Both the position numbers and the translations under genes were made by a program. Shown here in pieces: positions 31,209 through 59,939 of a stretch of DNA of 64,000 bases. The number at the start of each line of letters is the position of its first letter. Positions within the stretch are counted from its first letter, which is position 1. This stretch comes from Bacteroidia bacterium. GTDB taxonomy: Bacteria; Bacteroidota; Bacteroidia; 2-12-FULL-35-15. The notes below the pieces were generated by a model. That model did no database searches, was not told the DNA's origin, and worked only from the letters and a program-made list of their open reading frames with translations. The DNA is taken from contig JAGVJJ010000044.1 in assembly GCA_020051175.1 (NCBI GenBank), positions 192,761 through 256,760 on the forward strand, written 5' to 3'.

Positions 31209-31323
31209 GGCAGAGAACGACACTTTAGAAATATTATCGTAATTTTGTATCCTGGAAGATACCGCTATATTCATTTGTGGTTGATTTTATAAGATTGATA
31301 TATTGTTAGGGAGGAAGCCATAT

Positions 31324-33096
31324 ATGAGGGGCTTATTGGTTACTTTTATTATCCTGTTCTTAGGGCATTTGCTGCTGGCACAGCAAACTGCCCGTCCTGT
31401 TGCACTTCAACGCCCCTCTGATTATGAATATTTATCGGCTCCGGACTCATCAGGAAATCGCAAACCGCTCAAAGTTGCTTTAGTAAATCGTTTGCAAGAG
31501 TTAAAGCTACCTTATCCGATTATTTTTGTTCACGGACTTAATTCCAACAGCACTACCTGGGACAGCACCACCAATTGGATGGAAGCACAATATGGATTAA
31601 GCTTTGGCGGGCGCTTTGACTTTTGCCTGAATTATGATGCCGATTATTATGTTGCAAACAAAAATTTTAACGATTCGAATGCGGATATGGCGCTGTTTGT
31701 TTCCAATATTGTTGCAGGCGATTATTATTACGTGAATTTTGATGTAAGTACTGAAGGCCTGGTTTCACCTGGCTACTGGGACAATGGCTTTGTAAGAAGC
31801 AACCAGTCTGCTATTGCGAAGCAGGGTGTTGCTGTTAAATGGGCGGTAGAAAGGGTTTTGCAGGAGACAGGAAGGGATAAAGTTATTTTAATGGGCCATA
31901 GCATGGGCGGGCTTGCTTCACGGGAATATCTTCAGAACCCGGAGAATTGGCAGGCTGATGGTCGCACCCATGTTGCAAAGCTGGTGACTACAGGCACGCC
32001 TCACGGAGGAAGCAACTCAACCGCTTATAACCTGGGCTTCCTGGTAGGATTGGATGAGGAAACGGAGGCTGTTAGGGATCTAAGAAGAAGTTATTATTAC
32101 AGTGAAGACAGTGGTGTGTTCCTGTACGGTGGCAGAGAGGAAATGACGGACTCGACTATGGATGATAATCTTGGCGTTGATTTTTATAATGTGGATGTAA
32201 ACTGTGATGGAGTAACAGGCCAGGATATTGTGGGTTTAAATGAAAAAAGCCTTCATAAGGACTGGGATTTCGCAGGCATCGTAGGTAATTGTGATGGTTG
32301 CTGGGCCGAAGATGGTGGAGTGGGTGATGGGGTGGTGAATACCTATTGTGCGAACCTGAATAACTTTTATCCTGAACTGAATGCTGAGACATTTTATTAC
32401 AATGCCCCTGCCTACGCTGAAATACATACTGTTTTGCCTGGCCTCAATTCGGAAAATATGCTTGGACTGGATGAACCAGATAAATTTGAGCTTGCTTATA
32501 AAATTGAAGTAAATAAGAATTACACAGGTTTTATTACCATGCAGGCTGTAGAACCTTTGGGTTATGATTATGATTATTTCAAATTTACAATGCCCTACAC
32601 TGGTACGGTTACCATTACACTTAACAACATACAGCATCCGGAGTTGACCATTGCCTTGTTTGATTCGGTTTTTACCTCACCGGGGTTTGTCGTGCAGGAA
32701 TTCGGGAATGCGCAACTCACACTGTCGGAACCGCTTATGCGTGGTGATTATTTTCTAAGAGTTTCGGCAATAGCTGGACCCGAAAGCTATTTAGGATCCT
32801 ATGATTTTATTGTTGAAACTAATCCGCTTTCATCAGTATCTCATACCGGGAATAAAAGGGACGCAATCCACATTTATCCTAATCCGGCAACTTGGGAACT
32901 ATCAATAGATACAAAGGATGTGTCAAAAATTTCTGAGATAGAAGTTATAACGTCTCTCGGTGAAGTCATTTATAAAACCTCGGAAATAGAAACGATAACC
33001 AGGATAAATGTTGCAGATTTCCCAGAAGGAATGTATATCCTGAAACTGGTATCCGACAACAACGTAATATCGAAAAAATTTATCAGGAGCGAGTAG
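31324..33096 (+). CDS. Secreted alpha/beta-hydrolase (lipase/esterase-like) with T9SS type-A C-terminal sorting domain
   Basis: The start was trimmed to the ATG at 31324. It has a nucleophile elbow ILMGHSMGGLAS and a pre-peptidase-like beta domain. The CTD is IHIYPNPATWELSI...GMYILKLVSDN. Confidence 0.7.
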   Translation: MRGLLVTFIILFLGHLLLAQQTARPVALQRPSDYEYLSAPDSSGNRKPLKVALVNRLQELKLPYPIIFVHGLNSNSTTWDSTTNWMEAQYGLSFGGRFDFCLNYDADYYVANKNFNDSNADMALFVSNIVAGDYYYVNFDVSTEGLVSPGYWDNGFVRSNQSAIAKQGVAVKWAVERVLQETGRDKVILMGHSMGGLASREYLQNPENWQADGRTHVAKLVTTGTPHGGSNSTAYNLGFLVGLDEETEAVRDLRRSYYYSEDSGVFLYGGREEMTDSTMDDNLGVDFYNVDVNCDGVTGQDIVGLNEKSLHKDWDFAGIVGNCDGCWAEDGGVGDGVVNTYCANLNNFYPELNAETFYYNAPAYAEIHTVLPGLNSENMLGLDEPDKFELAYKIEVNKNYTGFITMQAVEPLGYDYDYFKFTMPYTGTVTITLNNIQHPELTIALFDSVFTSPGFVVQEFGNAQLTLSEPLMRGDYFLRVSAIAGPESYLGSYDFIVETNPLSSVSHTGNKRDAIHIYPNPATWELSIDTKDVSKISEIEVITSLGEVIYKTSEIETITRINVADFPEGMYILKLVSDNNVISKKFIRSE

Positions 33097-33700
33097 GAAG
33101 AATGGTGCTTAACACTTCTTTTATTGATTCATAGGTGTTGTCAAGTAATGGCGCAATATCATTTGCATTCACCCACAGCACATCTGTAATCCCTTCTTCC
33201 AGCTGGGGAACTAGTTTGCCGTTAAAGGCCGATTTCATTTTGTACCAATAAGTCCTTTTTAAAATATTTTTTTCTTTAAGCACATAGGTGTGATAGGTAA
33301 CGGGCAGTTCCTCGCTTATTTTTATGTCCCTGATACCACATTCTTCTTCAACTTCGCGAATGGCCGCATCCTTTATCTTTTCACCTTTTTCTATTTTGCC
33401 TTTCGGCAAATCCCATTTGCCATTTCTAAAAATAAACAGGTACTCTCCTTTTTCATTTTCCACCAGGCCTCCTGCTGCTTCAATAACCTGGAACATGGAC
33501 GAAAAATATTCAAATAGGGTCTTCAGGTTTGCATTGTGAAAATAAATTTCACGCTTTAAACTTGAGTTGTGAACTGTTTCCCTGTATTTGATTTGCATTT
33601 CATCCACAGTTTCTATATTTATTATTTTGATACCTTTTTTATGAAGCAGCTGGTTATCAGTCAGGTAAATTGTGTTTTCGGGAGTGAATATTTTAATCAT
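33083..33700 (-). CDS. NUDIX hydrolase
   Basis: Nudix box GKWDLPKGKIEKGEKIKDAAIREVEEECGI. Its 3' end overlaps the convergent hydrolase gene by 14 nt. Confidence 0.8.
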   Translation of the reverse strand: MIKIFTPENTIYLTDNQLLHKKGIKIINIETVDEMQIKYRETVHNSSLKREIYFHNANLKTLFEYFSSMFQVIEAAGGLVENEKGEYLFIFRNGKWDLPKGKIEKGEKIKDAAIREVEEECGIRDIKISEELPVTYHTYVLKEKNILKRTYWYKMKSAFNGKLVPQLEEGITDVLWVNANDIAPLLDNTYESIKEVLSTILPTRS

Positions 33701-33814
33701 TTTCTTTTTTTCGTTTTATGGTTCCGACCGATTAAATTGTTTAATATCTTTATACCCACGATTACAAGTTGATTTTGTATGGAGTGGGTGGTAATAAAAA
33801 AATAAAAAATTACA

Positions 33815-34456
33815 ATGAAACTGAATGAAGAATCTGCTTTGAAGATTGCCGAATTCCTTCTACAAATTAAAGCAATTAAATTACAACCTACCAAACCTTT
33901 TACCTGGGCATCGGGCTGGAATTCTCCAATATATTGCGATAACCGTGTTACTTTATCTTATCCGAAGATACGTACATATATCCGCCAGCAGTATGTGAAT
34001 TCAATCCTCGAGGAATTTGGTCGTCCTGATATAATTGCCGGAGTGGCTACAGGTGGTATCGCCCAAGGTGCTTTGGTTGCCCAGGAGCTTGGCTTACCTT
34101 TTGTATATGTTCGTTCTGAAGCTAAGAAGCATGGTATGACAAATATGATTGAGGGAGTTGTCGAAAAAGGCCAGTCTGTAGTGGTAATTGAGGATTTGAT
34201 TTCTACCGGTGGGAGCAGCCTGAAAGCCGTTGAAGCATTACGGGAAGCAGGTTGTGATGTAAAGGGCATGGTTGCAATTTTCACGTATGGCTTCAAAACC
34301 GCGGTAGATAATTTTAAAAAGGCAAAATGCAAGCTGGTAACATTAAGCGATTACGATACATTGATAAAGCAGGCTTTGCAGGCGGATTATATAGCAGAAA
34401 AGAATTTAAAATCACTTAAGGAATGGCGTGAAAACCCCGCAGAGTGGAAGAAATAG
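33815..34456 (+). CDS. pyrE: Orotate phosphoribosyltransferase
   Basis: FTWASGWNSPIYCDNR...VVVIEDLISTGGSS (PRPP-binding motif). Confidence 0.9.
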   Translation: MKLNEESALKIAEFLLQIKAIKLQPTKPFTWASGWNSPIYCDNRVTLSYPKIRTYIRQQYVNSILEEFGRPDIIAGVATGGIAQGALVAQELGLPFVYVRSEAKKHGMTNMIEGVVEKGQSVVVIEDLISTGGSSLKAVEALREAGCDVKGMVAIFTYGFKTAVDNFKKAKCKLVTLSDYDTLIKQALQADYIAEKNLKSLKEWRENPAEWKK

Positions 34457-40389: not shown

Positions 40390-40434
40390 AAAAAAATCCC
40401 TGAAACAAAAATTGGGAAATTTTCGCTTCAGGGA
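40390..40434 (-). terminator. Rho-independent terminator of the stress operon (after DUF326 gene)
   Basis: An 8-bp stem TCCCTGAA/TTCAGGGA (40397-40404/40427-40434), followed on the minus strand by T7 (the A-run at 40390-40396). Confidence 0.6.
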
Positions 40435-40455: not shown

Positions 40456-40779
40456 TTAGCTTACCGGTTGTGCACACATTTCAGCACATTTCCGACAAGC
40501 TTCGGCACATTTCTGGCAATGCTCCATACTTGAATGTTTTTCACATTCCGCAGCACAGGCTTCGCAGATCTCTACGCAAAGTTTTAGAAATTTATCTGAA
40601 TTTTCAGAATCTTTTTCAAGGCGTGTTGCGGTGAGCCTGCATATTTCAGCACATTCTTCATCGAGCGCTATACAGCGTTGTAAATTCAATTTGTCTTTTT
40701 CGCGCTGACAAGCATCATAACAGTGCGTACATTGTGCCGCACAATAATATAGGGTATCGATTATTTTTTTATTGTCCAT
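40456..40779 (-). CDS. Four-helix-bundle Cys-rich copper-binding protein (DUF326)
   Basis: Repeated C-x3-C-x2-C-type segments: CAAQCTHCYDAC, CIALDEECAEIC, CVEICEACAAEC, HCQKCAEACRKCAEMC. Confidence 0.8.
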   Translation of the reverse strand: MDNKKIIDTLYYCAAQCTHCYDACQREKDKLNLQRCIALDEECAEICRLTATRLEKDSENSDKFLKLCVEICEACAAECEKHSSMEHCQKCAEACRKCAEMCAQPVS

Positions 40780-40808
40780 TGTTTTAGTGTTTATAAGGGT
40801 TAATAAGT

Positions 40809-42140
40809 TTACATTCCAAAAGGAAAGGTTTCGGGCATTTGTCGTCCGTCAGGTTTTATGTGCAAAGAATGAAGTGCAGTGGTTTCATCAATAAATATAA
40901 ATGCTTCATACCGGTGGGGAATAAGGCTGGGCACATAATTCCCAAAACGTTCATATTCTGGTATATATACCACACCTATGGCCCGGTGTTCCAATTCTTT
41001 TTGCCCGATTTCCTTTTTCATCTCATCGGTCATAAATACAATCCTGCTCTGGGTTCCCAACTGGTGCATAAGGTGTTCCCAACTGCCGGGTTTTGCTTTG
41101 GGTACATTTACTGAATACATTGGGCCACCCCATTCCCGGCTGGCAATAACAGTGCCTTTAAAAGAACCAAAACCAATTGAAAAAACCTGCTTGTTATTCT
41201 GCTCATTTAAGAGTTGTCCTACGTTTACCATTCCGTTTTGTGACATATCCGTTGCGCGTGCATCCCCAATATGGGTATTGTGCTCCCATATAATTGCTTT
41301 TGCATCCGGACCATGAAATTTCATCAGCCGGTTTAATGTTTCTACCATGTGGTGGTCGCGTGTGTTCCATGAGTCGGGACCAGGTTGTACCATTTGCCTG
41401 TAATACTTTTCTGCATTTACAATTATGTGTGCATTCTGTTCGGAATTGAGTTTCGTTTCAGGATCAGCTGCATACAAATTTGTATCTTTTTGTATCTGGC
41501 AGAGCAATTCCACAACCTCTTCCTGGCATATAGGAGACATTGTTTGCGTGGCCCTGGCATACGATGCGCCTTCACCATCGCTATATGGCTCAAAGCATTT
41601 TAGAACGTCCATTGCGGCACGTTTTGTTCTAAGATCTTTTTCACCAGTATAATTTATAATGGCATCCAGCGATTCCCATAAACTATAAACATCCAGTCCA
41701 TAAAAGCCAATTTTGTCCGGGGAACTTAATTTGTCATTGTGCTTCCGCAGCCATTCTGTAAGTGCTACCATTTCCCAATTGGCCCACATCCATGTGGGCC
41801 AGCGGTTGAATGTATGCAATACATCAAATGCATTGTTACCAGCTTCCGGATAGTTCTTTACATAACGGTTTACACGGTAGCAGTCGGGCCAGTCGCCCTC
41901 AACTGCGACAAATGAGAAGCCTTTCTTTTCAATCAGTTTTTTAGTGATTTTGGCGCGCAGGGTATAATATTCGTGAGTGCCATGAGAGGCTTCACCCAGC
42001 AGTACATATTTTGCATTGCCAATTTTTTCGATTAAAATGTCGAGATCGTTAGTATTACTCAATGCTATTGAATTGTTTAGCAGCAACTCATTAAGATTGA
42101 CAGTTTCACCGGTTCTTTCTTTTAAATAAGATATTCTCAT
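40809..42140 (-). CDS. Erythromycin esterase family protein
   Basis: LLGEASHGTHEYY, GDWPD, WPTWMWAN and WEHNTHIGD are characteristic Ere/ChaN-like motifs. Confidence 0.8.
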   Translation of the reverse strand: MRISYLKERTGETVNLNELLLNNSIALSNTNDLDILIEKIGNAKYVLLGEASHGTHEYYTLRAKITKKLIEKKGFSFVAVEGDWPDCYRVNRYVKNYPEAGNNAFDVLHTFNRWPTWMWANWEMVALTEWLRKHNDKLSSPDKIGFYGLDVYSLWESLDAIINYTGEKDLRTKRAAMDVLKCFEPYSDGEGASYARATQTMSPICQEEVVELLCQIQKDTNLYAADPETKLNSEQNAHIIVNAEKYYRQMVQPGPDSWNTRDHHMVETLNRLMKFHGPDAKAIIWEHNTHIGDARATDMSQNGMVNVGQLLNEQNNKQVFSIGFGSFKGTVIASREWGGPMYSVNVPKAKPGSWEHLMHQLGTQSRIVFMTDEMKKEIGQKELEHRAIGVVYIPEYERFGNYVPSLIPHRYEAFIFIDETTALHSLHIKPDGRQMPETFPFGM

Positions 42141-42778
42141 TTTTGTACAGTTTCTTTTTCTCTGTTTAACTCTAGTAATAGCTGAATTGCTTCGTCATCC
42201 GTCACTTCAGAAAAATCCTGATAATACATACTTACTCCTGAGAAGTTGCTGATCTGGTTAGGACAAATGAATTCGTCTACAAGTTTTTTTATCTTTTCCG
42301 AGGTTTCAACGGGAGCTACAGGGCTTGCAACAATAATTTTTCCGGGATGTCGTTTTTGAATGAGTTTTATTGCAGCCAATATTGTGTTGCCTGTTGCAAT
42401 ACCATCGTCAACTATTATAATGGTTTTGTTGCTCAGTGGGTATCCCATTTCTTTTCCAATGAGTTTCTTATAGCGTGCAGAAAGAGATTCCCTGATTTGC
42501 TTGATAGCATTATCGATATAAGGTTGGGGAATCAAATGATGTTTGTCTACAATGGCATCTTCCAGGCTTACTGCACCTATAGCCAGTTCAGGGTTCCATG
42601 GATGTCCGATTTTTTTTGCCATAAGGACGTGCAATGGGAAATGATAATGTTTTGCAAGTTGGTAAGCGATTGGTATTCCTCCCCTCGGAATAGCCATAAA
42701 CAGACAATCCTCATGTCTGTATTTTTTTAAGTACGGCAGCAGCTTCTGGGCCGCATCAGTTCTATCTTTATACAACAT
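42137..42778 (-). CDS. Phosphoribosyltransferase-family protein (putative, non-nucleotide-salvage type)
   Basis: IPRGGIPIAYQLAK...IIIVDDGIATGNT (PRPP motif). The stop overlaps the esterase start (ATGA), and the start overlaps the upstream gene by 11 nt. Confidence 0.8.
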   Translation of the reverse strand: MLYKDRTDAAQKLLPYLKKYRHEDCLFMAIPRGGIPIAYQLAKHYHFPLHVLMAKKIGHPWNPELAIGAVSLEDAIVDKHHLIPQPYIDNAIKQIRESLSARYKKLIGKEMGYPLSNKTIIIVDDGIATGNTILAAIKLIQKRHPGKIIVASPVAPVETSEKIKKLVDEFICPNQISNFSGVSMYYQDFSEVTDDEAIQLLLELNREKETVQK

Positions 42779-43430
42779 GGATTTTTATTTTTTGCGCATT
42801 GATGTATTTGTTAAACCACCCGGCTGCCAATGCAGCGGCTACTTGTAGTTTCCCGGGTTCCTCAAACAAGTGAGATGCGCCTTCAATGATTTCAAGTTTG
42901 TTTGGGCAGTGAAATTTCTTCAGGCAATTTTTGTTGTAATCAAGTACTGTAGTGTCTTTGCTTCCCACAATGAGCAATACAGGGGCTTCCACCTTATGTA
43001 ATGCAGATATTGCTAAATCAGGCCTTCCGCCTCTGGAAACTACAGCATGTATAAATCCATCCAGCTGTGCTGCTGCGGTTAAAGCTGATGCTGCACCTGT
43101 ACTTGCCCCGAAAAATCCGATAGGCAGCTTTTTTAGTCGCGGTAAAGCATTGATATGTGATGTAACGGAAATCAACCTTTCCGAAAGCAGAGGAATATTA
43201 AACCTGTTTTCAAAAACGCTGTCTTCTTCTTCTGTCAACAAATCAGCCAGTAGGGTTGCTATCTTGTTTTTGTTTAATTCAGTGGCCACAAGGCGGTTTC
43301 TTACGCTAAACCGGCTGCTGCCGCTTCCGTGTGAGAAGATCACTAGCGACAATGCACCATCGGGAACACTAAGGCTGGCTTTTAGGGATGTATAATTGCC
43401 AACTGGGATATTGATTTCGGAGATGCTCAT
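42768..43430 (-). CDS. Dienelactone hydrolase-like alpha/beta hydrolase
   Basis: VIFSHGSGSSRFS...GFFGASTGAAS (nucleophile elbow G-x-S-x-G)...LLIVGSKD...GASHLFEEPG. Confidence 0.75.
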   Translation of the reverse strand: MSISEINIPVGNYTSLKASLSVPDGALSLVIFSHGSGSSRFSVRNRLVATELNKNKIATLLADLLTEEEDSVFENRFNIPLLSERLISVTSHINALPRLKKLPIGFFGASTGAASALTAAAQLDGFIHAVVSRGGRPDLAISALHKVEAPVLLIVGSKDTTVLDYNKNCLKKFHCPNKLEIIEGASHLFEEPGKLQVAAALAAGWFNKYINAQKIKIHVV

Positions 43431-43459
43431 TTTGAAAAATGTAGTGTAACATCTTTTAA

Positions 43460-43927
43460 TTACAAATCAAAAACCAATTCTTTCTCTTGTGAGGCCCTCA
43501 TTTCTTCAGCGTTTTTCATTGCTTTATATTCATCACCTGAGATGTAACCGAATATTTTGATGTCTTTTTGAATTGTTCTTAGCAGATATATAATGTTGAG
43601 AATAAGAACTTCATTATCTGAGGATGAAAAATGCCACTGTACCTTTACCATTGCATGGTAATCGTCAAGTGGTATTATCTCTTTGGAATAAATAGCGGCA
43701 TTTTTTATGCCATTGTTTTTATATCGGATAAAGCTTTCTTTTGTCCTTTTTATTAGTTCATCACATTTTCCGCAAGTTACAATGTGAGGATTGGATTCAA
43801 TAAAGCAACTGGAAGACAAGTCAATGATAGCATCAATACACTCGTTGTTTTCATCAGCAAGAATCCTATTGAAAAGTGATTCATAGGCTACAAAGAAATT
43901 TTCTATTTTTTTATTTCTGTTGTGCAT
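43460..43927 (-). CDS. Hypothetical protein (possibly NTF2/SnoaL-like fold)
   Basis: An ORF co-directional with and tightly packed in the operon. It has no signal peptide, and the fold guess rests only on size and pattern. Confidence 0.4.
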   Translation of the reverse strand: MHNRNKKIENFFVAYESLFNRILADENNECIDAIIDLSSSCFIESNPHIVTCGKCDELIKRTKESFIRYKNNGIKNAAIYSKEIIPLDDYHAMVKVQWHFSSSDNEVLILNIIYLLRTIQKDIKIFGYISGDEYKAMKNAEEMRASQEKELVFDL

Positions 43928-43955
43928 TGCTGTTTTTTGTTTTTTATTGAATTTG

Positions 43956-44189
43956 TTACTTTTTCACCTTTCCAATTCTTGTTGGGTCGGTTTTTTCGGG
44001 CTCTTCTATCCGTGTAGGATCATTTTTGTTGGGTTCATTACCTCCAGGTTTTGGTTTTGTTGGATCCGGGTTTTTATCTGGTTTTACCGGAATATCTTTT
44101 TCGGGTTTAACTGGTGGTGAATCCTTATCTGGTTTTTGGTTGTTGAGTGTTTTCATAAATCGGATGGCTTTTGATTTGTATAATTTCAA
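43956..44189 (-). CDS. Small Lys/Pro/Asp-rich low-complexity protein (predicted disordered)
   Basis: KPDKDSPPVKPEKDIPVKPDKNPDPTKPKPGG...NDPTRIEEPEKTDPTRIGK, with DPTRI occurring twice. An alternative start is the ATG at 44156. The plus-strand shadow ORF looks non-protein-like. Confidence 0.4.
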   Translation of the reverse strand: MKLYKSKAIRFMKTLNNQKPDKDSPPVKPEKDIPVKPDKNPDPTKPKPGGNEPNKNDPTRIEEPEKTDPTRIGKVKK

Positions 44190-44254
44190 CGGTACAACTT
44201 TACGGTTATTTACAGGAAGGAAATATTTTTATTCCCTTCCTGTAAAATTCATTG

Positions 44255-44959
44255 TTATTTGTGGTTGTCAGTTTCAGTTCCGGTCCCAGTTCCGGTTCCA
44301 GTTCCAGTTCCAGTTCCAGTTCCAGTTCCAGTCCCAGTTCCTGTTCCAGTGCCTGTTCCAGTTCCAGTGCCTGTTCCATTTGTATTGGTTCTGTTGGTTC
44401 CGTTACCAGTGCCAGTGCCGTTGTTCATATTCCCGTTTGTCCCTGTCCCTGTTCCATTATTCATGTTTCCATTGTTGGTTCCGTTTGTTCCGGTTCCAGT
44501 CCCATTTCCACTATCCCATTTGTTTGTTCCAGTTCCAGTTCCCTGACCAGTTCCAGTTCCCTGACCAGTTCCAGTTCCACCTGAATTGGATTTGTTCCAA
44601 TCGGTATTTTGATTTGAATTTCCTGTCTTTTTATTTGTATTTGTTCCACTTCCTGTGGTGTTGGTATTTGTCTTGTTTTTTGTGGATTTGTCCATCATTT
44701 TTCCTTCAAGGTCAATGCATTCCCCATCTTTAAGTGTCATTGTGGTGCCATCAGCTTTGGTTACGGTTCCGTCCATTGAGATTCGCGTGCCGTTTGCTAG
44801 TGTGGTTTCAGAGTTTAGTTCTTTACCCTCATGCATAATTGTAAGTTTACCATTTTTTGTTTTAGCGCAATATTTGTCGCTGTAATCGTTGGTTGGGTTA
44901 CCTGCAATCGCAGTATACGTTAAAGTGCAGGTTGCAATTAAAAATGTTAGAGTTTTCAT
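44255..44959 (-). CDS. Secreted protein with small beta-rich N-terminal domain and long (Gly-Thr)n / Asn-Gly-Thr low-complexity tail
   Basis: Signal [19 protein letters not shown]. The N-terminal domain is [14 protein letters not shown]...[28 protein letters not shown]. The C-terminal ~125 aa are almost only G/T/N, ending in about 20 uninterrupted GT dipeptides. Confidence 0.6.
44271..44582. repeat. Hexanucleotide microsatellite (CCAGTT)n plus 18-nt repeat x3
   Basis: Positions 44271-44387 hold about 19 near-perfect CCAGTT/CCGGTT/CCTGTT units. Positions 44529-44582 hold three copies of CCAGTTCCAGTTCCCTGA (the last is degenerate). All units are multiples of 3 nt. Confidence 0.9.
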
Positions 44960-45029
44960 AGTTGTTGTTTTTGTTCCGCTCCTGACGGAAGTTTTGATTA
45001 TTAATTATTGTTTACTTGTTTATTGGTTT

Positions 45030-45473
45030 TTATTGAACTTTGATTTTATGACTTTGTTCTTTTTTTGTTTCTGGTTTTTTTGAAATGGTAAGTTTTAGCA
45101 CTCCATCGTTGTATTGGGCTAAAATGGAGTTGCTGTCTGCCTGGTCTGGAAGTGTTAACTTGCGCATAAATGAAGAATAATTGTATTCTCTCCTTGAATA
45201 TTTATCGGTTTCATTTTCTTTTGTTTCCGATTCTTTTTCGCAGGAAATAGTAAGAACATTAGCATCAACGCTGATATTAAAATCTTCTTTTTGTAACCCT
45301 GGCGCAGCTACTTCTATTAAATACTTATCTTTTTCTTCAGAAAGGTTTACAGATGGAATAGTTACCATCTGTCCGCTGTCCCAAAAATCAAGAAAATCAT
45401 TTCGAAAAAATTTGTCAAAAGGCATATCCCAATATGAAGCCAGTCTTCGTGGACGTTTTTCAAGTGTTTGCAT
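45030..45473 (-). CDS. Small heat-shock protein, Hsp20/alpha-crystallin family
   Basis: Alpha-crystallin domain: PSVNLSEEKDKYLIEVAAPGLQKEDFNISVDANVLTISCEKE...F.R.L.LP...YNDGVLKLTISK. Confidence 0.9.
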   Translation of the reverse strand: MQTLEKRPRRLASYWDMPFDKFFRNDFLDFWDSGQMVTIPSVNLSEEKDKYLIEVAAPGLQKEDFNISVDANVLTISCEKESETKENETDKYSRREYNYSSFMRKLTLPDQADSNSILAQYNDGVLKLTISKKPETKKEQSHKIKVQ

Positions 45474-45541
45474 TGTTGTTTTTTGTTTTTTGTTTTGAAT
45501 AGTGATTGTCAGGCTTAAATTATTATGCCAACATCAGTAAC

Positions 45542-45706
45542 TTATTTTGTATTTTTTTTCTTTCTCTCCCGTTTTCTGCTGGGTGGGCCTTTAAAACCTT
45601 TTTCCTTGTTTTCACGGCTGTCCATATCATCCCTGATTTCAGGTTTGGGTTTCTTGCTTAGGCCCTGTTTACTTTGTTTGGTTGTTGTAGTTCTGGACGT
45701 TTTCAT
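45542..45706 (-). CDS. Unlisted small basic protein (54 aa, Lys/Arg/Thr-rich)
   Basis: Hand translation gives MKTSRTTTTKQSKQGLSKKPKPEIRDDMDSRENKEKGFKGPPSRKRERKKKNTK*. It is co-directional and fills the gap between two operon genes. It falls below the ORF-track length cutoff. Confidence 0.35.
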   Translation of the reverse strand: MKTSRTTTTKQSKQGLSKKPKPEIRDDMDSRENKEKGFKGPPSRKRERKKKNTK

Positions 45707-45722
45707 GTGTATTTGTTATTGG

Positions 45723-46163
45723 TTAATGTTGATTTCCTGAAGCTCGGCCCGAACCACCTGTAGTTCCTGAAACACCCTTGTTTTTTACTTCTGGGTTTTT
45801 AGTTATGTTTTGAGTAGATGAGGATGTTCCGCCCAAATCTGTCCCACTGCTTGACGTATTCATACCAGATGTTGTTGATGTCTGGTTTGTCATCTGGTTT
45901 ACATCCTGTTTGCTTCGGGTTTCGGTTCCCTGGTTTTCACTCATAAGGTTGGATTCCTCCGTTTCACCCTGCTTATTGAGTCCCATACTGCCTCCGGTTC
46001 TTGTGCTCGTATTCGAGCCCGAGTTGTATTTTGTAGGATCATTTACATCGCCCTCAGTAGTTTCTGAATTAGAATCTTTAGTGTTATCATTGCTTTCGCA
46101 GCTGGTAAGTGCAAGGGTGCCAGTAAAAGCAAAGGCAAATAAAAATTTGAATAGTGTTTTCAT
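45723..46163 (-). CDS. Ser/Thr/Asn/Gly-rich low-complexity lipoprotein
   Basis: The start was trimmed to MKTLFKFLFAFAFTGTLALTSC (lipobox). The rest is polar low-complexity sequence with no hydrophobic core. Confidence 0.5.
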   Translation of the reverse strand: MKTLFKFLFAFAFTGTLALTSCESNDNTKDSNSETTEGDVNDPTKYNSGSNTSTRTGGSMGLNKQGETEESNLMSENQGTETRSKQDVNQMTNQTSTTSGMNTSSSGTDLGGTSSSTQNITKNPEVKNKGVSGTTGGSGRASGNQH

Positions 46164-46346
46164 CGTCATTTTAGTTTATTGATAGATATTTATTTGTTAG
46201 TACTTGTAATCTGGATAAAATTGTGTACCACTTTGGGATTGTTGTAAATTCATTTTTTTGTCCACAGGATTACCCATATCGGATTTTTTGCTGTTGGGTA
46301 GATAATTTAACCAGTTTTGTATTTATGTTAAATTTGTGTTGTTTGA

Positions 46347-46919
46347 ATGATAACTAATGAAAATGCAAGGAGGATTTTTCTTGCAGTTGAACCACCTGTT
46401 GGGGTAAAAGAATTGGTAGAAACGCTGAAAGGTCATATTCCTATCCATCAATCGCTGAAATGGATGAGATTCTACAACATTCATCTAACAGTTTATTTTA
46501 TTGGAAATATTGATACAGTTCATTATCATGAAATCGTTGAAGAATGTGCATTTGTTTTTTCTTCTGTTGGCTCCTTCCGGTTGGAATTTGACAAAATAGT
46601 TCAGATGCCATCAGTTAAACCACGTATGATTTGGGCTCGCTACAAGGTTTCGGATGAGTTTACCTTTTTATACCATCAACTTCACGAAAGGCTGAAACCA
46701 TACTTGAAAAGCAGCGCATACGTATATGACAAGCCTGTGCCGCATATAACGCTTGCCCGGTTTCATGGTTTTAAATCGGATATTTTTTCAGATGTGTTTG
46801 AAAATTTGTTATTGCCTGATATGCATATCAGCAAAGTGGGTATCTGGGAAACAGTAAATAAGAATGGTCAGAGCGATTATGTTCAGAATAATGAGATGTT
46901 TTATTTAACCGTCCCTTAG
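46347..46919 (+). CDS. 2H phosphoesterase superfamily protein (ThpR/LigT-like RNA 2',3'-cyclic phosphodiesterase)
   Basis: It has two H-x-T-x motifs at the expected spacing, HLTVYFIG and HITLARF, and begins RIFLAVEPP. Confidence 0.65.
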   Translation: MITNENARRIFLAVEPPVGVKELVETLKGHIPIHQSLKWMRFYNIHLTVYFIGNIDTVHYHEIVEECAFVFSSVGSFRLEFDKIVQMPSVKPRMIWARYKVSDEFTFLYHQLHERLKPYLKSSAYVYDKPVPHITLARFHGFKSDIFSDVFENLLLPDMHISKVGIWETVNKNGQSDYVQNNEMFYLTVP

Positions 46920-57931: not shown

Positions 57932-59939
57932 ATGAGCAAACAGCTACACCACTCTGCCAATGGTTCTACTTTATCTGTATGCAACCGCTACTTATTATTA
58001 ATAGCTACTGCTATTATTTTTGTACAGTTTAAAACAACTGCACAAAATATTAGTGTTAATAGTACTGGTGCATTGCCAGACCCTTCGGCTATGCTTGATG
58101 TTGTGAGTGCAAATAAAGGTTTGTTGATGCCGAGGGTAAGCTTGACTGGTGTCAATGATAATACTACTATTCCTAATCCAGCCACATCTCTAGTGGTATA
58201 TAATACAAATTCTGCTATGTCTGGTGGAGGAATAGGCTTCTGGTACTGGAACGGAACTCAATGGGCGCGCTTTAGCGGTGCGTTAGGGAGCAACAGGAAC
58301 TACTGGGTCAACAGGGCCTGCTGGAGCAGATGGCTCAAATGGTACAAATGGAATAAATGGTGCAACAGGAAATACCGGAGCCAAAGGTGATACTGGTGCA
58401 ATGGGGGCAACAGGAAATATCGGTGCTACGGGCGCTGCCGGGGCAAATGGAACAAACGGAGTAAATGGTGCAACTGGCTCCACAGGTGCAGATGGAACTA
58501 ATGGTATAAATGGAGCGACTGGCTCAACAGGAGCTAAAGGCGATGCTGGCGTTGTCGGTCCTACAGGGTCTATTGGGGCGACAGGTGCACAGGGAACGAA
58601 TGGAACAAACGGTGTAAATGGTGCTACAGGTTCAACTGGTGCAGATGGATTAGCTGGTGCAACAGGCAGTACAGGAGCAGCAGGAAACAATGGCGCAACA
58701 GGTGTAACAGGGCCAACAGGTAATAAAGGAACGACAGGAGCTACAGGAACGGACGGTGCCAAAAATGCCTGGGGCTTTTTAGGAAGTACAGGAACTGTAG
58801 ATGGAACTCATTTTATTGGTACTATTGATAATGTACCTTTAAACCTACGAGTAGCTAACCAGCGCGCTGCGCGCATAGACCAGAACTTGTCTAATGCTTA
58901 TTGGGGATACCTGACAGGCAATTTAACAGGAACCGGAACAGACAATACAGCTGTCGGTAGTTACGCGTTTAGCTCCAACACAACCGGAGGCGCAAACGTA
59001 GCCAATGGAAATTATGCCTTAAATGCAAATACCACGGGGGTACGTAACACCGCAGTTGGTTATTCATCTCTTGCAGCCAATACTCTGGGGGATGAAAATA
59101 CTGCACTTGGAATGTTTACATTAGCATCAAATACTAATGGGATACAAAATACAGCAACAGGCAATGAAGCGCTTTCTGGCAACACTTCAGGAAGTAACAA
59201 TACAGGTGTAGGTTATTACGCATTACACGATAATTCATCCGGCAATAATAATACTGCGATTGGTTATGGTGCTGGCTATACGATAACAGGAAGCAATAAT
59301 ACCTTTGTCGGATATTTTGCAACTCCTGCCGGAAGCAGCTCACTTACCAATGCAACTGCTATTGGTGCGGGCGCACAGGTTAGTGCAAGCAATTGTCTCG
59401 TACTTGGTAGTGGAGCTAATGTTGGTATTGGTATTTCAGCACCTACACATAAACTGGATGTTAACGGCAGTTTTAATGTAAATGGTGTTACTACATGTAC
59501 TTCCGGTGCATGGTCTAGTTCTGACCAGCAGTTTAAAACGAACATCAGCAATATTTCTGATGCCTTAGCTATTATCAATCAGCTGCAACCGCGTACATTT
59601 AATTTTGACATTGCAAATAATTATGGCTTAAATTTTCCATCAGAAAAGCAATATGGGTTAGTGGCGCAAGAGGTGATTTCAATATTACCTGAGCTTGTAG
59701 GAAGTACTACCAAAGGAGCCGTTTTTGATACCGCTGGTGTAATGATTACCCCTGCTGTAACTTATAAGACGCTTAATTACAATGCCTTTATAGCTATTCT
59801 TATGAAAGGTATTCAGGAACAACAGCAAACAATTAATACGCTTTCTACAAAAGCAGATAATCAGGAGGCGACAATAAATACTTTACAAAATCAGGTCAAT
59901 ACGCTAATACAGCAAGTGCAGGAGTTACAGAATCACTAA
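57932..59939 (+). pseudogene. Tail-fibre-like surface protein interrupted by a 1-nt frameshift. Domains: N-terminal domain, collagen-like stalk, YadA-head-like repeats, S74 intramolecular-chaperone domain, coiled coil.
   Basis: Frame 2 (57932-58288) encodes the signal plus PDPSAMLDVVSANKGLLMPRVSL...WYWNGTQWARFSGALG. Frame 0 (58290-59939) continues ATGTTGSTGPAG... . Removing one base near 58289 keeps G-X-Y periodicity across the junction (GAL-GAT-GTT-GST). The C-terminal motif is SSDQQFK...YGLVAQEV. Confidence 0.65.
58277..58763 (+). repeat. G-X-Y (collagen-like) coding tandem repeat, ~55 triplets, with a 51-aa higher-order unit
   Basis: Gly occurs at every third codon. GTNGVNGATGSTGADG recurs exactly 51 residues apart. 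Confidence 0.9.

Follow-up and report, generated by a model that had tools for sequence, protein, structure and literature searches.

Three adjacent enzyme genes of a Bacteroidia bacterium related to Rv0571c and Rv2030c of Mycobacterium tuberculosis: a candidate conserved cassette in a variable gene island

Two proteins of the dormancy (DosR) regulon of Mycobacterium tuberculosis are among the closest described counterparts of the genes reported here. Rv0571c is a DosR-regulon 'phosphoribosyl transferase' encoded next to nrdZ (Rv0570), and the protein was detected only in carbon-starved M. tuberculosis; its other half is presumably a hydrolase of the dienelactone hydrolase (DLH) type. Rv2030c combines a phosphoribosyltransferase (PRTase or PRT) with a member of the erythromycin esterase (Ere) superfamily and lies within the Rv2028c-Rv2031c (hspX) operon (PMC4410610). 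Papers going back at least to 2008, the date of the earliest one found here, list both as 'conserved hypotheticals' of that regulon. We describe here a 64,000-nucleotide stretch of the genome of a Bacteroidia bacterium (positions 192,761 to 256,760 of contig JAGVJJ010000044.1; hereafter the window), in which three separate, adjacent genes (hereafter the trio) encode a DLH-like alpha/beta hydrolase (g7), a PRTase-like protein (g8) and an Ere-superfamily hydrolase (g9). The trio is an unfused Bacteroidota form of these already known, uncharacterised proteins. A preliminary description of the window had pointed to the likeness to both: the composition of Rv2030c and its place beside hspX agree with the published account, and for Rv0571c the PRTase part and the DosR membership are borne out by the literature. 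Their biochemical function had been called unknown, and a literature search found no paper that assigns a function to Rv0571c or Rv2030c, or that describes the trio.

The likeness to the mycobacterial proteins lies in the pairing of PRT with Ere and of PRT with DLH, with the PRTase N-terminal in the fusions that we found, and it is matched by the published domain description of Rv2030c and the presumed one of Rv0571c. The window differs from M. tuberculosis in having three separate genes, with one PRTase for both hydrolases, and in belonging to a member of the Bacteroidota without DosR and without a DevR box. Direct relatives of g8, g7 and g9 are TT1426 (PDB 1wd5), an Anabaena 'dienelactone hydrolase' (2o2g) and BcR135/BcR136, respectively, each of which was solved as an isolated protein, and a literature search found no paper on a partnership of proteins of these types.

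In the window, the trio is encoded on the minus strand in the order g7 (42768-43430), g8 (42137-42778) and g9 (40809-42140). The g7 and g8 genes overlap by 11 nt (ATG...TAA) and the g8 and g9 genes by ATGA, both as previously described. Two sets of loci were used to evaluate the conservation of this arrangement. For the PRT-centred set, one genome per species was scanned with a 7-sequence alignment of the g8 family, a 20-sequence PRTase alignment having been too diverse for the genome scan; this yielded 80 loci, 65 of them with at least 1.5 kb and 49 with at least 5 kb on both sides. The Ere-centred set consisted of 80 metagenomic loci obtained with an alignment of the g9 family, 23 of which had at least 1.5 kb on both sides. 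Below, L-numbers denote loci or contigs of other genomes and P-numbers denote homologous proteins.

It was found that the PRT-centred loci came from at least 14 phyla, including Archaea, a Candidate Phyla Radiation (CPR) bacterium, Chlamydiota and Cyanobacteria. A DLH gene, with a product 44-58% identical to g7, was present within 400 bp and on the same strand in 38 of 65 PRT loci, 19 times upstream and 19 times downstream, and anywhere in the locus in 42 of 65. An Ere gene was present within 8 kb in 10 of 49 loci, nine of which also had a DLH gene. In the reverse scan from Ere, a PRTase was present in 10 of 23 loci and both partners in 8 of 23. For comparison, a single-copy family would by our estimate lie within 8 kb on either side of a given gene in about 0.4% of 4-Mb genomes, that is, well under 1%. 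The co-occurrence, on which the preliminary description had made the idea of a linked triad depend, was thus far beyond chance. PRT-DLH is the robust core (about 60% of loci), and Ere is a frequent but optional third member (20-40%).

The order of the genes is DLH-PRT-Ere in the window and in Flavobacterium luteum, whereas Ere is divergent from DLH-PRT in Chitinophagia, both PRT-DLH-Ere and PRT-Ere-DLH are found in Acidobacteriota, and DLH-Ere-PRT is found in a Legionellales genome. This shuffled order is what selection for co-expression would bring about, as opposed to common descent of one arrangement. Adjacency in many phyla, the shuffled order and the fusions support the interpretation that the three genes were conserved as a set and are linked in function.

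The PRTase is N-terminal in every fusion found and is the hub of all of them. PRT-Ere fusions are represented by P0208, P0212, L026 and L029, with an Ere part 62% identical to g9, and PRT-DLH fusions by P0267, P0332, L034, L062, L066, L067, L044 and L075, which are about 440 residues long in Streptomyces and Kitasatospora. A triple PRT-DLH-Ere fusion was also found (P0375). These fusions join the same PRT, DLH and Ere subfamilies, PRT first, as in Rv0571c and Rv2030c, with the composition of Rv2030c taken from PMC4410610 and the hydrolase half of Rv0571c presumed. The g8 family is also fused to 5-phosphoribosyl pyrophosphate (PRPP) synthetase (Prs; P0343 and P0384), and fusions to PIN (P0373) and Dak2 domains occur, P0330 being the fourth fusion protein listed with these three. 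A Prs gene adjoins PRT in five loci (L051, L052, L056, L074 and L083), which come from Alphaproteobacteria, Nitrospirota, a CPR bacterium and a Woesearchaeote; those of the CPR bacterium and the Woesearchaeote lack DLH.

The g8 protein has a Pribosyltran domain (E = 3e-15) and is similar from end to end to TT1426 (1wd5; residues 2-203 against 2-205, E = 5e-26), including a KKIGHPxNPE insert and the C-terminal hood, and it is a TT1426-type protein by this measure. The PRPP loop VDDGIATG is intact (V-D124-D125-G126-I-A128-T129-G130-N-T), and across 75 sequences each of its residues is either invariant or conserved to at least 95%. The PRGG loop (P31-R32-G33-G34), K56 and the aromatic hood residues Y186/F189 are likewise at least 95% conserved in 75 homologues, such that both the PRPP-binding loop and the pyrophosphate (PPi) loop of type I PRTases are present. 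When g8 was compared to curated equivalog models (Upp, Apt, Hpt, PyrE, PyrR and Prs), the best score was 35 bits, to a Prs subfamily with a cut-off of 113, and all matches were confined to the PRPP-loop region. The g8 family is large, with 6603 clusters at 50% identity (E <= 1e-10). Because of the loop conservation and the Prs fusions and neighbours, we read g8 as a protein that probably handles PRPP.

Some of these features would also suit a PRTase-like protein that acts as a ligand sensor for PRPP, a nucleotide or (p)ppGpp, like the PRT domains of PurR and PyrR, and that, depending on energy or nucleotide status, turns the attached or neighbouring hydrolases on or off, as well as PRPP synthetase in some lineages. 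PRPP and (p)ppGpp are established ligands of this site in PurR and several PRTases, and the invariant motifs of g8 are only those that bind ribose-5-phosphate and PPi, which would serve binding as well as catalysis. A PRT that is the common N-terminal partner of the unrelated domains DLH, Ere, Prs, PIN and Dak2, and that is present in one copy per hydrolase in some genomes (L026 and L029), is what a sensor would predict. However, conservation of the PRGG loop, K56 and the hood residues is typical of catalytic type I PRTases, a dedicated Prs beside or fused to PRT fits substrate supply better than signalling, and there is no DNA-binding or other output domain. We regard a sensor role as unlikely on this evidence, albeit one to be kept in mind.

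The g7 protein scores 27.1 bits against Pfam DLH (gathering score 21) and matches 2o2g with E = 7e-54, and it belongs to the dienelactone hydrolase family. The triad Ser110 (in GASTG)-Asp159-His187 and five arginines are at least 95% conserved, and the motifs HGSGSSRxSxRN and SRGGRPD are present. Classical dienelactone hydrolase has a Cys nucleophile, unlike the Ser of g7. The five invariant arginines suggest a substrate that is anionic.

The g9 protein matches Erythro_esteras (PF05139) over the whole profile (positions 1-358 of 358, E = 5e-112, 375.6 bits), and E50, H53, E81, R261, H287 and H290 are invariant among its homologues. These residues correspond to the catalytic set of EreC (E47, H50, E78, R261 and H289; PMC7979712), and g9 shares with EreA, EreB, EreC and EreD the fold family and the Glu-His-Glu-Arg-His constellation. 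It differs from them in being a distinct, highly conserved subfamily (60-78% identical across Bacteroidota) that lies far under the cut-offs of the macrolide esterases: the NCBIfam EreA, EreB and EreD models gave 35.9, 24.5 and 18.4 bits against cut-offs of 750-800. The nearest solved relatives are BcR135/136 (2qgm, 2rad/3b55; E = 1e-17), whereas only about 70 N-terminal residues of g9 align to EreC. Judged by their conserved residues, all three trio proteins look like active enzymes.

The family name of g9, and the fact that DLH-family enzymes hydrolyse lactones so that both hydrolase classes cut cyclic esters, could be taken to mean that the cassette detoxifies antibiotics or xenobiotics, with a macrolide esterase beside a lactone hydrolase. 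The scores of g9 given above contradict this, and the esterase activity cited for BcR135/136 is on p-nitrophenyl butyrate, EreC being the first solved member that hydrolyses macrolides (PMC7979712). Nor would detoxification provide a role for a PRPP-type transferase, for PRPP synthetase fusions, or for the universal stress protein (Usp), Hsp20 and hibernation promoting factor (HPF) neighbours and FNR-type boxes described below, and there is no mobile-element context. Detoxification is, in our view, highly improbable.

The trio is embedded in a cluster of ten consecutive minus-strand open reading frames (g1 to g10 in the direction of transcription) that spans 40456-46169, as open reading frame calls over the whole cluster confirmed. 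The domain calls made previously (Hsp20, DLH-like, PRTase-like, Ere-like and DUF326) all held in comparisons to Pfam, NCBIfam and the PDB. On the 3' side, the cluster ends at an intrinsic terminator on the minus strand at 40390-40434, exactly where it had been placed, with a 17-bp stem and a T7 run (-26 kcal/mol, z = -5.4). On the 5' side, g1 is separated from a divergent gene for a LigT-like protein (46347-46919) by a common upstream region of 177 bp (46170-46346), close to the 180 bp given previously. Between g4 and g5, a minus-strand stem-loop at 44210-44245 has a perfect 16-bp stem and no U-tract; its predicted stability of -23.5 kcal/mol (z = -6.5) was reached by 0 of 200 shuffled sequences. 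It is likely to be a transcript boundary or a processing or stability element, and may act as a terminator, a processing site or an operator; relatives do not conserve it. It argues against one transcript for all ten genes. An Rfam scan of 39.5-47.5 kb found no RNA family. The distances between successive genes from g5 to g10 are 28, 29, -11, -4 and 29 nt. Because of the hairpin and these short gaps, g5 to g10 are likely to be a unit of their own, which suggests at least two transcription units in the window, with g5-g6-g7-g8-g9-g10 as the core unit; the same order, g5-g6-DLH-PRT-Ere-Csp3, recurs in L084. The genes g1 to g4, for a lipoprotein, a basic peptide, an Hsp20 and a DUF6799 protein, are likely to be co-located stress genes and not obligate partners of the trio.

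Contigs of related organisms show that the island is a mosaic. They have flanks in common with the window, with genes for an M13 peptidase, a DUF1684 protein, an iron permease, a thioredoxin and LigT on one side and for PriA on the other. L085 and L086 have g5-DLH-Ere-Csp3, with neither PRTase nor g6. L087 has g1-g2-Hsp20-g4-g5-g6-Csp3 and no trio, and L088 and L089 have the same arrangement but also lack Hsp20. In the sisters L087, L088 and L089, the 2.5-kb trio segment of the window (43390-40890 on the minus strand: most of g7, all of g8 and most of g9) is cleanly deleted and replaced by about 116 bp (seen in the regions L087:10455-10700 and L088:10400-10620). In L087 and L088 this short stretch retains relics, namely some 40 nt from the 5' end of the DLH gene, in which the start codon is mutated, and some 80 nt from the 3' end of the Ere gene. 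The trio was therefore ancestral and was subsequently deleted in these relatives. The rest of the island was kept in the trio-deleted sisters at 57-89% amino acid identity, and the surrounding genes are not dependent on the trio. The single ten-gene module of the preliminary description is contradicted by this mosaic, since sisters keep g1 to g6 and Csp3 without the trio, and by the hairpin that splits the cluster.

The last gene of the cluster, g10 (40456-40779), encodes a protein of 107 residues of the DUF326/Csp type with 16 Cys and no signal peptide, similar to Csp3 of Bacillus subtilis (5fig, E = 1.2e-16). Its sequence indicates that it is a cytosolic copper storage protein of the Csp3 type, a four-helix bundle lined with Cys. 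In size, in its predicted Cys-lined four-helix bundle and in lacking a signal peptide it resembles Csp3 of B. subtilis (YhjQ) and Streptomyces (Ccsp); the Ere-like neighbourhood of g10, in contrast, is not mentioned in the Csp3 papers that we found. A Csp3 gene directly follows Ere in the window, in L084-L086 and in F. luteum (L003), and follows the PRT-Ere fusion in L001. This arrangement, together with g10 being a good Csp3 homologue, would suit an operon centred on copper in which the enzymes serve or depend on the Csp3 store. However, tblastn detected a Csp3 homologue in 0 of 80 PRT-centred loci, and of the 40 Ere-centred loci that were flanked by 0.7 kb or more on either side, just one had Csp3. 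Csp3 remains where the trio has been deleted (L087-L089), and a copper requirement is not known for any of the three enzyme families. We consider a copper-centred operon very unlikely. The association with Csp3 is restricted to a single subgroup of the Bacteroidota, and Csp3, the NTF2-like gene (g6) and the disordered proteins are lineage-specific. As for the association with Hsp20 and a Cys-rich copper protein noted previously, Hsp20 is a neighbour in only about 16% of loci and Csp3 in this one subgroup.

The trio is present in some close relatives and absent from others, and PADLOC gave weak matches of g8 to the retron III-A PRTase and ShosT models (E = 1e-6 to 4e-3). With the PRT-PIN fusion P0373, these observations could be read as an anti-phage system in which the PRTase is a toxin-like effector, as in type III-A retrons and ShosT, and the hydrolases are antidotes. 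The PADLOC matches, however, cover only the generic PRPP-loop region, and g6, g7, g9 and g10 had no PADLOC hit. No reverse transcriptase, noncoding RNA (Rfam), DprA-like partner or other defence gene was present, and g8 therefore does not belong to a retron III-A or ShosTA system. The neighbours are stress and metabolic genes and not defence islands, and the g8 family is of great size and is found on the chromosomes of many phyla. A defence function is scarcely credible. On the evidence given with each, we rejected the readings as macrolide resistance, a copper operon and phage defence.

We also evaluated the genes that surround PRT in other genomes. Response regulators (20 loci), Usp (15), P-type cation ATPase (8), Hsp20 (8), DUF2267 (7), phosphoenolpyruvate (PEP) synthase or pyruvate phosphate dikinase (6), DUF892 (5) and PRPP synthetase (5) were found, and PEBP, CBS(+BON), nitroreductase, peptidase M50, S30AE/HPF, and RtcB with archease were also recurrent. 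At least one neighbour of the Usp, Hsp20, nitroreductase, CBS, M50, ribonucleotide reductase (RNR), P-type ATPase or HPF type was present in 22 of 49 loci and at least two in 11 of 49, these being raw counts without a matched random-locus baseline. In two Flavobacteriia, a gene for a single-chain RNR lies directly downstream of DLH-PRT (L023:8664-10388 and L030:8661-10382). This echoes the nrdZ-Rv0571c neighbourhood of the M. tuberculosis DosR regulon, to which the Hsp20 of the window (g3) is a further likeness. As a separate observation, genes for RtcB RNA ligase and archease recur beside PRT/DLH in Flavobacteriia (L019:8680-10547, L025 and L033), and RNA-repair genes may belong to the same stress islands, the window having a LigT-like phosphoesterase gene divergent from g1.

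The DosR regulon and the lxa locus of Burkholderia cenocepacia list the same categories of genes as are found beside PRT (PMC3721108). The repertoire that they have in common with PRT/DLH/Ere loci elsewhere comprises Usp, alpha-crystallin, nitroreductase, class II-like RNR, cation ATPase, PEBP and BON/CBS. An FNR/FixK-type palindrome has been proposed for lxa, and a similar box is found in the Bacteroidota islands described here, but PRT, DLH and Ere are not listed as members in the lxa papers. The island of the window differs from both systems in being small and in having no Usp, no regulator and no FNR-type box. A search of the Streptomyces OsdR literature for a PRT-DLH member turned up no more than a nicotinate PRTase.

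Upstream of the DLH-PRT operon, 11 of 21 Bacteroidota loci have an FNR-type box, TGAY-N4-RTCA; 14 sites were found against 0.39 expected and none in 1000 shuffles reached this number, with the reservation that the pattern was defined post hoc on the same sequences. The box was 16 times denser in intergenic than in coding DNA of 27 Bacteroidota islands (among L003-L039; for example L004:6290, L008:7918, L011:4937 and L039:7261) and precedes PRT/DLH/Ere, Usp, Hsp20, HPF, PEP synthase and regulator genes. The corresponding pattern with N6 spacing gave nothing, N4 being the actual spacing. Regulators of 351-356 residues with a receiver and a Crp-like part (Response_reg, cNMP_binding and HTH_Crp_2) are encoded beside DLH-PRT in eight Bacteroidota loci (L008:5019-6080, L039:9285-10340, L029:620-1690, L023:14009-15064, and also L015, L022, L030 and L033), and they are the likely readers of the boxes. 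If the box pattern holds, it indicates a co-regulated Bacteroidota island that would be a functional analogue of DosR control. In actinobacteria, DevR/OsdR-like palindromes (GGGNC-N4-GNCCC) were found upstream of PRT(-DLH) in two of six loci, L041 (-80) and L073 (-77), and the palindrome in L041 is the sole such site in 14 kb.

In the window, the only FNR-type box between 38 and 48.5 kb is inside g10 (40706), and tblastn found no receiver-cNMP-HTH_Crp regulator in the window; by these marks the locus is not an FNR/Crp-box island. Two blocks upstream of g1 on the minus strand, TGGGTAATCCTGTGGACAAAAAAA (46253-46276) and TGGTACACAATTTTA (46216-46230), are conserved in L087 and L088; neither resembles the -33/-7 promoter usual in Bacteroidota, and neither recurs in the rest of the window. 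The conserved motif TGGTAYACAMTTT upstream of g1 had 12 matches in the window against 9.9 expected, and no regulon could be defined from it. The Bacteroidota -7 element TAnnTTTG was absent from the minus strand between 40000 and 46400, and it was rarer than expected in the whole window (47 against 84). Matches to the sigma-70 consensus were at background level, and none was taken as a promoter.

On balance, we think it probable that the locus is a variable Bacteroidota stress island in which an old and widespread three-enzyme cassette is embedded. In this cassette, g8 would work with g7 as the core, with g9 as a frequent third partner. The g8 protein would bind PRPP and transfer, or in the reverse direction remove, a 5-phosphoribosyl group, with an acceptor that is probably planar and nucleobase-like. 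The g7 and g9 proteins, as metal-independent ester hydrolases, would act on a precursor or product of the g8 reaction that bears an ester or lactone and is probably anionic or phosphorylated, and the three proteins may operate as a complex or channel. The cassette would be part of a repertoire that bacteria switch on to survive without growth in low oxygen, during starvation or in stationary phase, and which would also include Usp, Hsp20, a ribosome hibernation factor, single-chain RNR and PRPP/ribose enzymes, and it would be induced by stress in the organism of the window. The preliminary description of an ancient, widespread stress or dormancy enzyme system was right in its central idea, as seen from the linkage and the DosR homology, and made too much both of Csp3 and of the ten genes as one unit.

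Several findings weigh against this proposal. The structures 1wd5, 2o2g and 2qgm/3b55 are structural-genomics depositions, and no member of these families has a known biochemical activity. About 40% of PRT loci have no adjacent DLH, and the third partner is absent from most PRT loci and more than half of the Ere loci, which makes the trio facultative. In L085 (9305-11692), DLH-Ere-Csp3 is present with no PRTase between these genes or within 10 kb, and the hydrolases can thus persist at this locus without the PRTase hub gene; loss of the trio from close relatives that kept the rest of the island means that it is dispensable there. To stand in for a complex, a natural PRT-Ere fusion was modelled with AlphaFold2; the model had good domains, a disordered linker of 20 residues, a predicted template modelling (pTM) score of 0.63 and no confident interface. 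A separate PRTase domain for each hydrolase, as in L026, L029 and the two M. tuberculosis proteins, fits a regulatory role too. As for the stress setting, the neighbour counts and the box pattern carry the reservations given with them, and the window lacks Usp and, by tblastn, a receiver-Crp regulator, with neither g1 nor g5 preceded by an FNR-type box.

These results change how Rv0571c and Rv2030c may be regarded, because their domains form a separable, conserved set of enzymes in many phyla, with the PRTase as hub, Prs as a recurrent partner and the active sites intact. A vague annotation is thereby turned into a testable proposal of PRPP-dependent chemistry coupled to ester hydrolysis. The function of the mycobacterial proteins would become experimentally approachable, since Flavobacterium and Streptomyces offer non-pathogenic hosts and the relatives of the window offer natural deletion variants. 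The putative Bacteroidota FNR-box/receiver-Crp regulon parallels DosR and lxa in gene content and points to a general response to stress or low oxygen that is poorly charted in this phylum. A far bolder extension, which we hold to be improbable as it stands, is that an undiscovered metabolite or signal, phosphoribosylated and nucleotide-like, is made or destroyed by the PRT-DLH(-Ere) cassette and belongs to a universal programme of the non-replicating state (entry, survival and exit), which Actinomycetota (DosR regulon), Bacteroidota (FNR-box/receiver-Crp regulon), Acidobacteriota, Legionellales, Chlamydiota and some Archaea would have in common.

The remaining genes of the cluster, all on the minus strand, are as follows. 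The g1 gene (45723-46169) encodes a lipoprotein-like protein of 148 residues with an LALTSC lipobox; its N terminus is weakly similar to PG1828-family lipoproteins, its body is of low complexity and rich in T, S, G and N, and it is 67% identical in L087. The g2 protein (45542-45706; 54 residues) is hydrophilic and strongly basic (K/R-rich), and it is 89% identical in L087 and 70% in L088. The g3 protein (45030-45473) is an Hsp20/alpha-crystallin (PF00011, E = 5.6e-25, 87.8 bits against a Pfam gathering score of 20.8), 82% identical in L087 and without a counterpart in L088. The g4 gene (44255-44959) encodes a secreted DUF6799 protein (E = 5.7e-18) with a Gly-Thr/Asn-rich tail, of which the (Gly-Thr)n part is encoded by hexanucleotide (period-6) arrays at 44269-44378 and 44526-44579, where the local AT skew is extreme (-0.40). 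This protein has 234 residues against 189 in L087; only the first 96 residues align to the L087 homologue and the repeat part is unaligned, and the length of the tail thus appears to be variable.

The g5 gene (43956-44189) encodes a hydrophilic Pro/Lys-rich protein that is 71-86% identical in L084-L089. Because homology to its relatives begins at the ATG at 44156, this codon is probably the real start, which would give a protein of 66 residues. The genes g1, g2, g4 and g5 are taken to be real because they are conserved in related contigs, at 57-89% amino acid identity. The g6 protein (43460-43927; 155 residues) has no Pfam match and only 10 homologues in 5.8 billion proteins, and its family is very small and lineage-specific. 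An AlphaFold2 model of g6 is an NTF2-like barrel (SnoaL/ketosteroid-isomerase fold) with a predicted local distance difference test (pLDDT) score of 75.5 and a pTM of 0.71, and it matched the NTF2-like structure 3b7c with E = 3.7e-6.

Elsewhere in the window, a second, unrelated PRTase gene (213 residues) is divergent from a NUDIX gene at 33083-34456, and its synteny with PriA is kept in L084, L085 and L089; this pair is probably housekeeping and outside the cluster. A protein with a Por_Secre_tail domain (type IX secretion) is encoded at 31303-33096, and among named organisms the closest homologues occur in Bacteroidia, Flavobacterium and Chitinophagaceae. The 512-residue protein encoded at 58401-59939 combines collagen triple-helix repeats with a Peptidase_S74 (endosialidase chaperone) domain, as is typical of phage tail fibres, and may be what is left of a prophage.

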